Shown here one piece after another: positions 1,936-4,900 of a stretch of DNA of 64,000 nucleotides. The translations under genes were made by a program, and so were the position numbers. Numbering within the stretch: position 1 is the first letter of the stretch; the number at the start of each line of letters is the position of its first letter. Below the pieces are notes generated by a model, which saw nothing but the letters and a program-made list of their open reading frames with translations, was not told where the DNA came from and did no database searches. This DNA comes from Nitrospirota bacterium (lineage in GTDB: Bacteria > Nitrospirota > Leptospirillia > Leptospirillales > Leptospirillaceae), in the NCBI GenBank assembly GCA_021801345.1, contig JAJYYA010000022.1, forward strand, positions 1,594 to 65,593. Reading direction: 5' to 3'.

Positions 1936-4900
1936 CTATTCCGCCGACACTTCGTAGGGGATCCCGGGACGAAGTTTTTTGAGGACAAGCCGTCCCGACC
2001 CGTCCGATCGGACAGTGCGCCCCCCCGCGGACTTTTCCCCGGAGTTCCTGACCCTGTAGGAGGTCGAGGGCGACAATCCCCGAAAGACCACCCGGTCCCC
2101 CTTCCCCCATCCATTATAGACGAAAGAAAAGCCCTTGCGCGAAAGCCCCCCCGACAGGGAGACAACCCCTGTGGCCCGCGAAAGAGAGGGGATCGTCGGA
2201 GCCGTCCGGGTCAAGACAAGACGTGCCGACGGTCGACCCGTCGCGAGATAGAGATAGAGACTCCCCCCCCGATGCCGGTAGCCGATCACTCCCCGGGAAC
2301 GGGCAAGGTCGGGATAGACCGAGCCGGCATGGTCGAAGCGCACGGTCGTGTCGCGCCCGTAGTTCGAAACACGGTAGATCCTCCCGACCTCCTTGTCAGG
2401 CAGTCGCTTCACGTCGATGCGGGCCCCGATATACCCTTTTTCCACCTCGACGAACTCGGAGGAATAGAGCGGGGCAATGGACTGGGTCGAGACCCAGTCG
2501 AGGACCTGCCGGAGGGCGTTCAGCGCCGATTCCCGCTGGCCGGCATAAAAATGGAAGTAGACATCGATGGGGTCGACGCGCCGGGGACGGTCGGTCCGAA
2601 AAAAGGTCTTCGTGACGTTCAGATAGCCGTAGTAGGGCCCCTTCCAGTCGTTGGTCAGGATGTAGTCGTTCACATCGCTGTTGAAGTACTGAATATAGGG
2701 CCCCACCCGCCTGAAGTAGGGAAAGACGAAGGTATAGGAAGGAGCATTGTCGTCGAACCGGGTATCCGAGCCATTGAGATTTAAAACCCCGGTCCCGGCA
2801 AGCTCTTTTAGCGCATCGGCTCCCGGACGCGTGTCACCGCTCCACTGAAGGACCCGGACCTTCTTCCCCGGAGGAAGAAGATGGCGGTCGATATAGTCGA
2901 TGGATCCCCGGATCTCCGTGCGGAAATTAAGATGGTAATGGGGAACTTCGATGTGGGTCGGCCCTTCGTCCTTCTGATCCTTCGTGGGGACCCAGTAGAA
3001 GGGATGGCTGAAGGTGTGGGATCCGGCCTCCACATTGGGAAGGGCAAAGATCTTTCTCGCCCAGAAGACGCGGCCCGACGATCCCTGCACGCGGGGATCG
3101 ATCTGGCTTGTGATCACAGAAACGGTAAACGGGAGCGACACGGGCTTGAAGATCTTCCGGTAGAGCACCTCGGAAGACATCCGACGCCGCTTGTAGTGGG
3201 AGAGAGTCTCAAAGGCATCGCCGTCAACCTGGCTGTAGAAGATGCGGTCCCCATTTAAGGTCGTAAGATCCATCCGGGGGAAGTCCCGAATATGGAGGAT
3301 CGTCTCGAGAAAACGAAACGGGTTCACAAACCAGAGGGTATGCTCGGCATCGAGGGAGGGCCACCGGATCATGAAGGGGTCGAAGACCATCCCCCCCCAG
3401 GGGGCCACCATCCCGTAGGGGCTCTCGAGCCCCTCGTTTCGGAACTCGCGGCTCTTCACCCCGAGAAAGATCCGGTTGGCAGGAGAGAGGCTTACCAGCG
3501 GCCGGAAGGCGACGGGAGTCAGCGGCAGCGGATACTCGAACCCCGTCAGGGAAGGATCCCGGTGTCCGTAGTCGAGGTCGAAGGGGTTGGTGTCCCAGAC
3601 CCCTTCCTTCTTGAGCCCCATGCGCAGAAGGACCCGGTCCCGGAGGGTTCCGGCCGCCTCGTAGTTCGGGTCGGATTTTTTCCTTTCCGGAAAGTCCTCC
3701 AAGATGGCAAAGGGGATCCGGTGATCGAGAAGCCCCGAAACAAAGCGCCAGAAAGCCAGGGAGTCGGGCAAGGGGTTCCGGTCGATCTGAAGGAAGACCG
3801 CCCGGTAGCGGGAAAGTGTAGCCGGATCAGGGAAGCCCCGGGTCATTTTTCGATAGACCGCATCGAATCCCAGGTAGTTGAGAGGGAACTCCCAGTAAGC
3901 GCGGAAGTTGTTGGCGTCGTCCGACTCCCTGTCCGGCCCGTAGTAGAGGACATAGCAGCTCCGATGGATCCTCTCCCACCCTCCGGAAGAGGCTCGACCT
4001 TCCCCGCCCGAGGCATGGGCCTGGGCGGGCGCGGCCCAGGAGGCGAGAGCCGCCAAAAAAAGAAGGCCGGCCACGGTCGCCTTTTTTGCCCCAGCGGCGG
4101 GAGGAGTATCCGGAAGGACGAGATCCTCCTTCTCTTTGGGGGAGGACTCCTCCTGCGACTCGACACTGGCATAGTCCGGAGGCTTCATGAAGACGCTGAA
4201 CTCGAAGTCGTAGACCCCCCGGTCGACCAGAAAGTACCCGTAGACAGCCGACAGAAGACAGGCGACCAGATACCCCATTCCCTCGAGGCGGGGACTCACG
4301 CTCCAGAGAAGGACGGTCAGCCCGGCGTTCGACAGAAGGAGGACCCAGGCCAGGGCGCTCACCATCTTCTGCTGGTTGAAGTAGAGGAGCAAGGTGAACT
4401 CCATGGTCAGAATCACCTGGCAGAACCCCCCCAGGGCCCCCATGCGGAAGACGGGAAGGGCCAGGAGGTCGGCGTGAAAAAGGGAAAGGATCCCGTGGCC
4501 GTTCAAAACCACGACGAAGGTCACCGCCCCCTGGATCTTCAGAATGTACCCGAGCCCCCTCTTGATGAAGGCGACCATCTGCTCCTTGGCCTCGAGCACC
4601 TCGGAGAGGGGCCTTCGACCTTCGAGCAGGACGAAGACCCCGCGGTATCGTTCGTAGAAGCCCGTCTCGAAATAGAAAACGAAGAGCGCAAGCGTCGGGA
4701 TGACCGTCAACAGGGAGAAGAACATGGCGATGTCGTAGAGCCGGTTGACGTGGATGTACCCCACGATTTTTTCCGAGCCGGGACCGTACCAGAAGAGAAT
4801 CTTGTCGACCCAGATGCCGAGCGTCATGACAAAGCCCAGAAGCATGAGACGCGTGCGACGCTTCAGGAAGGAGACGAAGGTCCGGTTCCAGCGGATCGGA

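Follow-up and report, generated by a model that had tools for sequence, protein, structure and literature searches.

PelA of Pseudomonas is a free periplasmic enzyme whose deacetylase and alpha/beta domains bind tetratricopeptide repeats (TPRs) 9-15 of PelB, stimulating deacetylation (PMC12022489). The P. thermotolerans protein (PtPelA) is divided into a hydrolase domain (residues 37-292), a mixed alpha/beta domain (293-498), a deacetylase domain (499-792) and a beta-rich domain (793-937); the mixed alpha/beta domain forms part of the PelB-binding surface in P. aeruginosa, and the deacetylase is assigned, as its first member, to CAZy carbohydrate esterase (CE) family CE21, whose fold and motifs resemble those of CE4 and CE18 (PMC12022489). 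In Bacillus cereus, a hydrolase-less deacetylase, PelA_DA, has one transmembrane helix that is predicted by AlphaFold2 (AF2) and AlphaFold3 to pack on helices 9, 10 and 12 of PelG, and the authors propose that Pel is deacetylated on leaving PelG; they call the link in Gram-negative bacteria 'unclear', and the hand-over of polymer from PelDEFG to PelA is an acknowledged gap for those organisms (PMC13254593). A survey of exopolysaccharide operons listed 13 gene fusions in cellulose systems, 6 in poly-N-acetylglucosamine (PNAG) systems and none in pel (PMC7112194, supplementary table). The pel operon described here lies in a 64,000-nucleotide stretch (the window) of a Leptospirillaceae contig of the phylum Nitrospirota (JAJYYA010000022.1, positions 1,594 to 65,593), and in it pelG and a hydrolase-less pelA (pelA') form a single gene. 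This is an architectural variant of the well-known Pel system; such proteins are already in the databases without being annotated or described as fusions, and a literature search found no paper describing a PelG-PelA fusion.

A single gene for PelG and PelA'

The fused open reading frame (ORF; 1936..5541, minus strand) runs for 1201 codons without interruption, from a GTG start at 5541 that overlaps the pelF stop codon as TAGTG, with GGGAG 7 nt upstream, to a TAG stop at 1936-1938. Its product consists of a complete PelG (residues 1-452), an acidic linker, a signal-peptide-like helix (488-508) and about 690 further residues (Table 1). The helix segment, KK-ATVAGLLFLAALASWAAPAQA followed by HA (residues 486-510), has a hydropathy peak of 1.69. 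A sequence-only reading of this stretch had described a PelG-like membrane domain continuing without a stop codon, through a charged linker and a hydrophobic helix (residues 488-510), into a region of ~690 residues that carries the motifs VDGDAF (residues 772-777, nt 3228-3211) and HTFSH (residues 842-846, nt 3018-3004), and had pointed to an in-frame ATG at 4188 (M452). All of these observations hold, coordinates included. The size given for the C-terminal region is also right, but the region contains three domains rather than the single CE4 domain that had been envisaged.

The Pfam PelG family (PF16933) matches residues 1-451 over model positions 1-452 (E 1.9e-112; 376.9 bits against a cut-off of 29), which confirms the proposed identity of the membrane domain from end to end. 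An AF2 model of residues 1-1200, built on an alignment of 69 sequences, has a mean predicted local distance difference test score (pLDDT) of 85. The PelG part of the model is helical (pLDDT 70-94), and a Foldseek search of the PDB with the N-terminal half returned MATE, WzxE and MurJ over 450-480 columns (E 1e-6 to 1e-4). The N-terminal half is modelled as a transporter of 12 transmembrane helices of the multidrug/oligosaccharidyl-lipid/polysaccharide (MOP) superfamily, and the C-terminal part as PelA. Confidence is above 90 for residues 520-1200 and below 50 for residues 452-487 and 499-519, with the intervening helix at ~46-51.

Identity and catalytic residues of the PelA' module

The C-terminal module is PelA itself without the GH114 hydrolase domain, not a generic CE4 enzyme. 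A phmmer search of PDB sequences aligned it to P. thermotolerans PelA (9CGY; E 3.8e-66) over chain positions 261-832, which correspond to PtPelA residues ~297-868 and thus to PelA without its N-terminal GH114 domain; the mixed alpha/beta domain aligns to chain positions 261-462 (PtPelA ~297-498). The same structure was the top Foldseek match in the PDB (E 9.5e-42, root-mean-square deviation 3.3 Å over 691 columns, target template-modelling score 0.66). The C-terminal 691 and 750 residues matched nothing in Pfam or NCBIfam, even with E values up to 10 allowed; it was the PDB sequence search that identified the module. The CE4 profile (Pfam Polysacc_deac_1/NodB) likewise did not match in either segment. 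Of the earlier assignment, membership in the metal-dependent polysaccharide deacetylases stands, and CE4 gives way to PelA (CE21) by the sequence and fold of 9CGY; the D-x-D and H-[ST]-x-x-H motifs of the module do look CE4-like.

Catalytic columns were counted over the 69-row alignment A1, in which row P0010 (a PelF-PelG protein with no PelA region) is misaligned, and residue roles were taken from PMC12022489. The catalytic base (D528 of P. aeruginosa PelA, PaPelA; D773 in the window) is present in 69 of 69 rows, the metal triad (D530, H600 and H604; D775, H842 and H846) in 68, 69 and 68 rows, and the catalytic acid (H761; H997) in 68 rows. The residue that activates the acid (E723 in PaPelA) is D959 here, in a column that is Glu in 46 rows and Asp in 22. 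At the position of H526 of PaPelA (motif MT1), whose proposed role is to activate the base, a task that falls to an Arg in CE4 and CE18 enzymes (PMC12022489), the window has Gln (Q771, nt 3229-3231), as do 27 of the 69 rows, with His in 41. The 27 rows make up the whole Leptospirillum clade, fused and unfused alike, and point to an altered catalytic arrangement in that clade. Because the substitution is clade-wide, and because PelA' is apparently the sole deacetylase in the sister loci, Q771 is read as a clade variant and not as decay. From its conserved residues the fused module would be expected to act as a deacetylase.

Occurrence of the fusion in Leptospirillia

The stretch around the junction (3700-4369) is present, identical and without gaps, in contigs X1, X3 and X4, which stem from metagenomes of mine drainage, sediment and mine tailings in three unrelated studies. 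The junction of a variant strain (X12) differs solely by an in-frame 6-nt insertion, which falls in the Gly/Ser-rich segment (residues 509-520), a segment whose length and sequence differ between orthologues. Full-length fused orthologues (1187-1226 aa, 69-92% identity) fall into nine clusters at 90% identity; with the full protein as query, a word-indexed search for homologues gave 10 matches only. One fused cluster includes EES53933.1 (UniRef100_C6HU05) of Leptospirillum ferrodiazotrophum, which is labelled 'membrane protein-like protein' and comes from an assembly of 2009. The ORF is continuous in seven species-representative Nitrospirota/Leptospirillia metagenome-assembled genomes (MAGs) of GTDB with a locus G+C content of 59-65% (L001-L005, L007 and L008), and the operon has the same order in L001-L004, L007 and L008 to the extent of their contigs and in L005 from pelE onward. 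Across the fused genomes the linker varies in length and sequence without ever breaking the frame.

A metatranscriptome contig from a strain ~90% identical (X14) covers 3962-5699 and crosses the junction with indels that sum to +6 nt. This suggests that the fused form is expressed, with the reservation that RNA libraries can contain DNA and that metatranscriptome contigs cannot reveal 5' ends. Three metatranscriptomes from the same study as the window strain (X21-X23) gave essentially no coverage.

Origin from adjacent genes

The closest relatives of the module are stand-alone proteins of 718-761 aa from Leptospirillum sp. of lower G+C content (61-65% identity). Their loci (L006, L019-L021 and L026; 50-52% G+C) have the same operon with separate genes for PelG (482-484 aa) and PelA' (722-725 aa), which meet in an ATGA overlap or are separated by a 40-nt gap. 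The sister PelG ends in FMKPPDYTAIEDELPAAKSPLNAPALSGEPSS before its stop codon, where the window reads FMKPPDYASVESQEESSPKEKEDLVLPDTPPAAGAKK; the sister PelA' begins with MKKNLFVALILPFFIFWGSVPEGLGA, followed by QDN, where the window reads FMKPPDYASVESQEESSPKEKEDLVLPDTPPAAGAKKATVAGLLFLAALASWAAPAQA, followed by HASGG. The MKK-led signal peptide of the separate PelA' aligns with the fused helix, which is led by AKK, RGK or RGR. Because both segments align with the ends of the unfused sister proteins, the linker can be traced to the old PelG tail, and the 13th helix is, by this alignment, the former Sec signal peptide of a once-separate pelA'.

In more distant relatives (L022, L024 and L025; 47-52% identity) the order is pelA'-pelB(two genes)-pelC-GH114-pelD-pelE-pelF-pelG; the two PelB genes of these pelA'-first, Leptospirillia-like operons encode ~675 and ~465 aa. 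A plausible series, judging from these gene arrangements, is that PelA was split, pelA' moved behind pelG, and the two genes were fused. The ancestor would already have had PelA as two genes, one for a GH114 lipoprotein and one for a PelA' of ~720 aa with a signal peptide and alpha/beta, CE21 and beta-rich domains, and in the Leptospirillia of high G+C content, among them L. ferrodiazotrophum and the window strain, a small frame change at the overlap would have cost pelG its stop codon and pelA' its start codon at once.

A second fusion family

Similar fusions were sought by a filter-only HMMER search of 1.84 billion representative proteins, of which the best 150 matches were examined. PelG and PelA' occurred together in two representatives among these 150, the Leptospirillia cluster and P0012 (1752 aa), so the survey of pelG genes proposed in the sequence-only reading brought a second family to light; a fusion with weak matches to both halves could fall outside the best 150. 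Most of the matches were PelA'-only proteins of ~700 aa, which lack GH114 and are widespread, or were 900-1000 aa long, a length consistent with full-length PelA.

The P0012 family, which comes from metagenomes, comprises five clusters (P0012 and P0305-P0308; 1747-1755 aa, 78-100% identity). Its gene sits after pelF with a separate GH114 gene nearby, and as one partial member is labelled Candidatus Neomarinimicrobiota, the second lineage is tentatively placed in that group. P0012 consists of PelG, a signal-peptide-like helix (ending in LALLAGAPAKAWA, followed by ADP), three alpha/beta domains, a CE domain and a beta-rich domain. Its CE domain is 42-50% identical to those of unfused multi-repeat proteins and ~30% identical to that of the window, and the CE domain of the window is closest to unfused Leptospirillum proteins. 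Because each CE domain is closest to unfused proteins, the two fusions are taken to be independent.

Several other long matches were rejected as fusions. No PelG domain was found by Pfam in P0038, P0062, P0064, P0074, P0084 or P0101, and none on reading the sequences of P0119, P0133 and P0136; the rejected matches contain repeated alpha/beta domains or TPRs. P0038, P0119, P0136, P0062, P0064 and P0084 are secreted PelA-type deacetylases of 1200-1700 aa without GH114 or PelG, and in P0038, P0119 and P0136, for which the sequence itself was read, several tandem copies of the mixed alpha/beta domain precede the CE domain, an architecture that goes unmentioned in the PelA structure paper. The metagenomic protein P0010 (957 aa) is an apparent PelF-PelG fusion with ~90 Arg/Pro/Gly-rich residues between the parts; these resemble out-of-frame translation, and the protein may be a frameshift artefact rather than a true fusion. 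In two Campylobacterales MAGs (L015 and L017) of Sulfurimonas type, pelF-pelG is followed immediately by GH114 and PelA' matches, probably a full-length pelA. In a Calditrichaceae MAG (L009, 10001-12925), GH114 lies downstream of PelA', the reverse of the canonical order within PelA, and no pelG was detected within 10 kb upstream.

Topology of the fused protein

Transporters of the MOP superfamily with 12 transmembrane helices have both termini in the cytoplasm. The loops rich in Lys and Arg (residues 211-230 and 296-335) and the KK before the 13th helix agree with the positive-inside rule. Because of these termini and this rule, the 13th helix would run from inside to outside and the PelA' module would be periplasmic, as the sequence-only reading had proposed. 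The old PelA' signal peptide would now act as an internal export signal. As the product is one polypeptide, the exporter component and the deacetylase, which is predicted to act on the alpha-1,4-GalNAc polymer of Pel as it emerges, are made in a 1:1 ratio and inserted at the same spot, whether the protein is afterwards cleaved or stays tethered. No docking on PelG or helix packing is claimed, since the pLDDT of the 13th helix is low.

Alternative explanations

Were a stop codon between pelG and pelA' hidden by a sequencing or assembly frameshift, as the sequence-only reading had itself cautioned, the fusion would be spurious; the closest unfused relatives differ by a small frame change at the ATGA overlap, and a single-base error could mimic the fusion. 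The chance of this is negligible given the identical junction in three independent studies, the seven species-level genomes and nine protein clusters whose linkers diverge in length while all remaining in frame, the fusion already present in the 2009 L. ferrodiazotrophum assembly, and the RNA-derived contig of a related strain that crosses the junction in frame. A different doubt concerns the module, which might be a catalytically weakened scaffold or polymer-binding domain instead of an active deacetylase, as the Gln for the base-activating His and the Asp for Glu723 could indicate. This is unlikely, because the catalytic base, each residue of the metal triad and the acid His recur in at least 68 of the 69 rows, the rows with Gln include unfused PelA' proteins that are apparently the only deacetylase of the pel loci examined, no further PelA-like sequence was found in the window, and the CE region is 76-90% identical between the fused orthologues compared. 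Taken as a whole, the preferred explanation is a genuine, lineage-specific gene fusion within a complete pel operon, with a probability of roughly 0.85. Four points weigh against it: the residue proposed to activate the base is Gln across the Leptospirillum clade, so that activity of the module is not assured; whether there is one polypeptide or two is read here from nucleotide sequence; the 13th helix and the linker are modelled with low confidence (pLDDT 36-51); and fusing adjacent, translationally coupled genes can be near-neutral, so that a functional advantage is not proven.

Given a genuine fusion, the fate of the product may be pictured in three ways. With a little better than an even chance, the protein is a precursor that signal peptidase I cuts between A508 and H509 (after A506-Q-A508), freeing a soluble periplasmic PelA' to bind the PelB TPRs; PelG would keep the 13th helix, and the fusion would secure only 1:1 synthesis and local delivery. 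A precedent is FbcH of Bradyrhizobium, a cytochrome b-c1 precursor processed at a signal peptide within the chain; a literature search for bacterial precedents of internal signal peptides returned viral papers only. Cleavage is favoured by the derivation of the 13th helix from an N-terminal signal peptide, by the positively charged n-region, the hydrophobic core of ~15-17 residues, the Pro at -4 to -6 and the small residues at -3/-1, all recognisable by inspection in 10 of 10 fused Leptospirillia proteins and in 5 of 5 proteins of the second lineage (at -3 to -1, AQA, SQA, ALA, GLA, SLS, SRA, GRA and ASA in Leptospirillia; AWA, VRA and ARA among those of the second lineage), by the conservation of this c-region though the neighbouring linker has strongly diverged, by the flexible Gly/Ser segment after the candidate site, and by the finding that P. 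aeruginosa PelA acts while bound to PelB TPRs 9-15 (PMC12022489). The conserved AxA-type motif is suggestive and not decisive, however, because Ala, Gly and Ser are abundant in linkers of high G+C content and AxA-like triplets arise easily by chance, and in some orthologues the apolar stretch is 20-22 residues long, enough for a stable anchor. A permanent tether, which was the chief proposal of the sequence-only reading and in which the 13th helix is an uncleaved anchor that holds the deacetylase at the exit of PelG so that Pel is deacetylated as it emerges, has a chance somewhat below even. It agrees with the predicted packing of the B. cereus PelA_DA helix on helices 9, 10 and 12 of PelG (PMC13254593), with the geometrically trivial join between the cytoplasmic C-terminus of PelG and the cytoplasmic end of such a helix, with the two independent fusions, which suggest that PelG and PelA sit together, and with an apolar stretch of 17-22 residues that could cross the membrane; it agrees poorly with the conserved signal-peptidase-type c-region, with a tether of ~12 residues that would be short if the module must also reach the mid-periplasmic PelB TPRs, and with a low-confidence AF2 helix that shows no confident packing. 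A tentative proposal, more doubtful than not, is that the deacetylase stays tethered or helix-bound to PelG and that Pel loses its acetyl groups where it leaves the inner membrane, not on the PelB scaffold. Very unlikely is a separate PelA' made by internal initiation on the same mRNA, the possibility that the sequence-only reading had attached to the in-frame ATG at 4188 (M452), with GTG 4074 (V490) as a further candidate: M452 belongs to the conserved C-terminal F-x-V-F-M of PelG, which is also found in unfused PelG and in P0010, no Shine-Dalgarno-like sequence precedes either codon, a start at M452 would give an acidic n-region of 36 residues and one at V490 would lose the positive n-region, and translation of the full-length protein would continue anyway where no stop codon intervenes. 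When 1000-6000 was scanned for promoters and terminators, nothing promoter-like turned up and terminators were not in excess.

The pel operon around the fusion

The genes lie on the same strand, from high to low coordinates, in the order pelB-pelC-GH114-pelD-pelE-pelF-pelG::pelA' (Table 1).

Table 1. Parts of the fused gene and neighbouring pel genes in the window
Feature	Position	Strand	Residues and basis
PelA beta-rich C-terminal domain	1939..2424	(-)	~1040-1201; all-beta in AF2, pLDDT 80-95
PelA deacetylase domain, CE21	2425..3279	(-)	~755-1039; residue-by-residue alignment to PtPelA
PelA mixed alpha/beta domain, formerly called 'reductase-like'	3280..3981	(-)	~521-754; phmmer to 9CGY, pLDDT >90
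Gly/Ser-rich flexible segment between helix and folded periplasmic module	3982..4017	(-)	509-520; pLDDT <50 for 499-519
13th hydrophobic helix, former PelA' signal peptide (ATVAGLLFLAALASWAAPAQA, then HA)	4018..4080	(-)	488-508
Acidic linker, predicted cytoplasmic, ending in positively charged AGAKK	4081..4185	(-)	453-487; pLDDT <50
PelG domain, Pel exporter component of the MOP superfamily with 12 transmembrane helices	4186..5541	(-)	1-452; Pfam PF16933, AF2, Foldseek
pelF (GT4 glycosyltransferase), 1-nt overlap with fused gene	5541..7115	(-)	NCBIfam PelF equivalog E 1.3e-137; Pfam DUF3492 and Glycos_transf_1
pelE-like gene, exact start uncertain	7046..8260	(-)	30% identity to L022 PelE-position protein; synteny in all related loci
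pelD-like gene, start probably near 10500	8109..10634	(-)	31.6% identity over residues 45-504 to L022 PelD
Stand-alone GH114 hydrolase (PelA hydrolase domain)	10535..11476	(-)	5TCB E 2.1e-26; 9CGY chain 6-240; Pfam GH114
pelC (outer-membrane lipoprotein), start approximate	11486..12010	(-)	PDB 5T11 E 5.7e-11, 9H80 E 1e-7
pelB-like gene (TPR and porin)	12031..15504	(-)	several TPR Pfam families; 34-36% identity to two L022 PelB-position genes

The hydrolase missing from PelA' is encoded by the separate GH114 gene, whose product begins with a lipoprotein signal, RRAVVGALGGVLLLSSC followed by FSPS (LLLSSC). A lipobox-like Cys motif (LPSC, LSSC, MASC, LGSC, MTSC or GGC) is present in most of the Leptospirillia GH114 orthologues checked, and neither L024 nor the second-lineage locus L023 showed one. 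From these motifs, the hydrolase half of PelA seems to be anchored to a membrane apart from the deacetylase half.

The PelD-like protein had no Pfam, NCBIfam or PDB match, and the L022 PelD to which it was aligned itself has weak GAF and GGDEF matches. Its C-terminus carries an extra ~300 aa, consisting of a Ser/Glu/Asp-rich low-complexity stretch and then a small basic domain (including MTRREISKNSRGFARLG); the unfused sister genomes have a version of 616 aa. The PelC matches fall on the last 150 residues of a long ORF. Directly after the fused gene is a gene for an outer-membrane lipoprotein of the Slp family (1187-1906, minus strand; Pfam Slp E 3e-11), which occupies the same position in the fused loci L001-L005 and L007 and is missing from it in L019 and L026, which are unfused.

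Significance and comparison with known systems

A covalent PelG-PelA' protein that arose twice is genetic evidence that the two proteins act together, and points to a functional coupling between them. If the module does stay tethered, the two fusions would be Rosetta-stone evidence for direct contact between PelG and PelA in Gram-negative Pel systems generally; the main value of the locus lies in such evidence for PelG-PelA coupling, together with a ready experimental handle. The unfused arrangements of relatives allow a plausible path of intermediates to be drawn for the Leptospirillia fusion, and the hydrolase and deacetylase halves of PelA emerge as separable modules that would be differently anchored, one as a lipoprotein and the other on the exporter. 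The organisms are of interest because Leptospirillum group III builds acid-mine-drainage biofilms. Annotation is corrected for proteins of 1190-1226 aa that have been labelled only 'PelG' or 'membrane protein-like', their deacetylase part being without domain annotation.

Among known systems, the N-terminal half resembles canonical PelG (PF16933) in its full-length Pfam match, its MOP fold of 12 transmembrane helices and the position of its gene directly after pelF; canonical PelG has ~456-484 aa, whereas the fused protein adds ~750 C-terminal residues (tail, 13th helix and PelA'). The C-terminal half shares with Pseudomonas PelA homologous mixed alpha/beta, deacetylase and beta-rich domains, the same base, metal triad and acid His, a place in the pel operon and a predicted periplasmic location. 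It differs in having its GH114 domain in a separate lipoprotein gene and not in the same chain, in being joined to the C-terminus of PelG where Pseudomonas has a free secreted protein, and in the Gln at His526 and the Asp at Glu723, with identity of only ~25-30%. Closer still is the separate PelA' of the P0162 cluster (e.g. MHB1564334.1, 722 aa, 'polysaccharide deacetylase family protein'), which is 61-65% identical to the module and has the same domain set, Gln variant, operon and position after pelG, but has its own start codon and N-terminal signal peptide and an ATGA overlap with pelG.

The P0012 family is alike in its PelG, its signal-peptide-like helix with an AxA-type site, its PelA-type deacetylase and the pelF gene upstream, and is set apart by three tandem alpha/beta domains before the CE domain, ~29% identity and an independent origin. 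The PgaC-PgaB and BcsA-BcsB fusions (Bundalovic-Torma et al. 2020, PMC7112194) also join an inner-membrane component to a periplasmic partner, in the PNAG and cellulose systems rather than in Pel. B. cereus PelA_DA (CE26/CBM114; PMC13254593, 2026) has in common with the fused protein the absence of a hydrolase domain, the single helix and the idea that export and deacetylation are coupled; its association with PelG is non-covalent, its host is Gram-positive, its CE family and domain set are others, and its gene lies between pelE and pelF. By this analogy, the Leptospirillia protein, from a diderm that also has PelB and PelC, may be regarded as the PelG-PelA_DA pair naturally joined in one chain.

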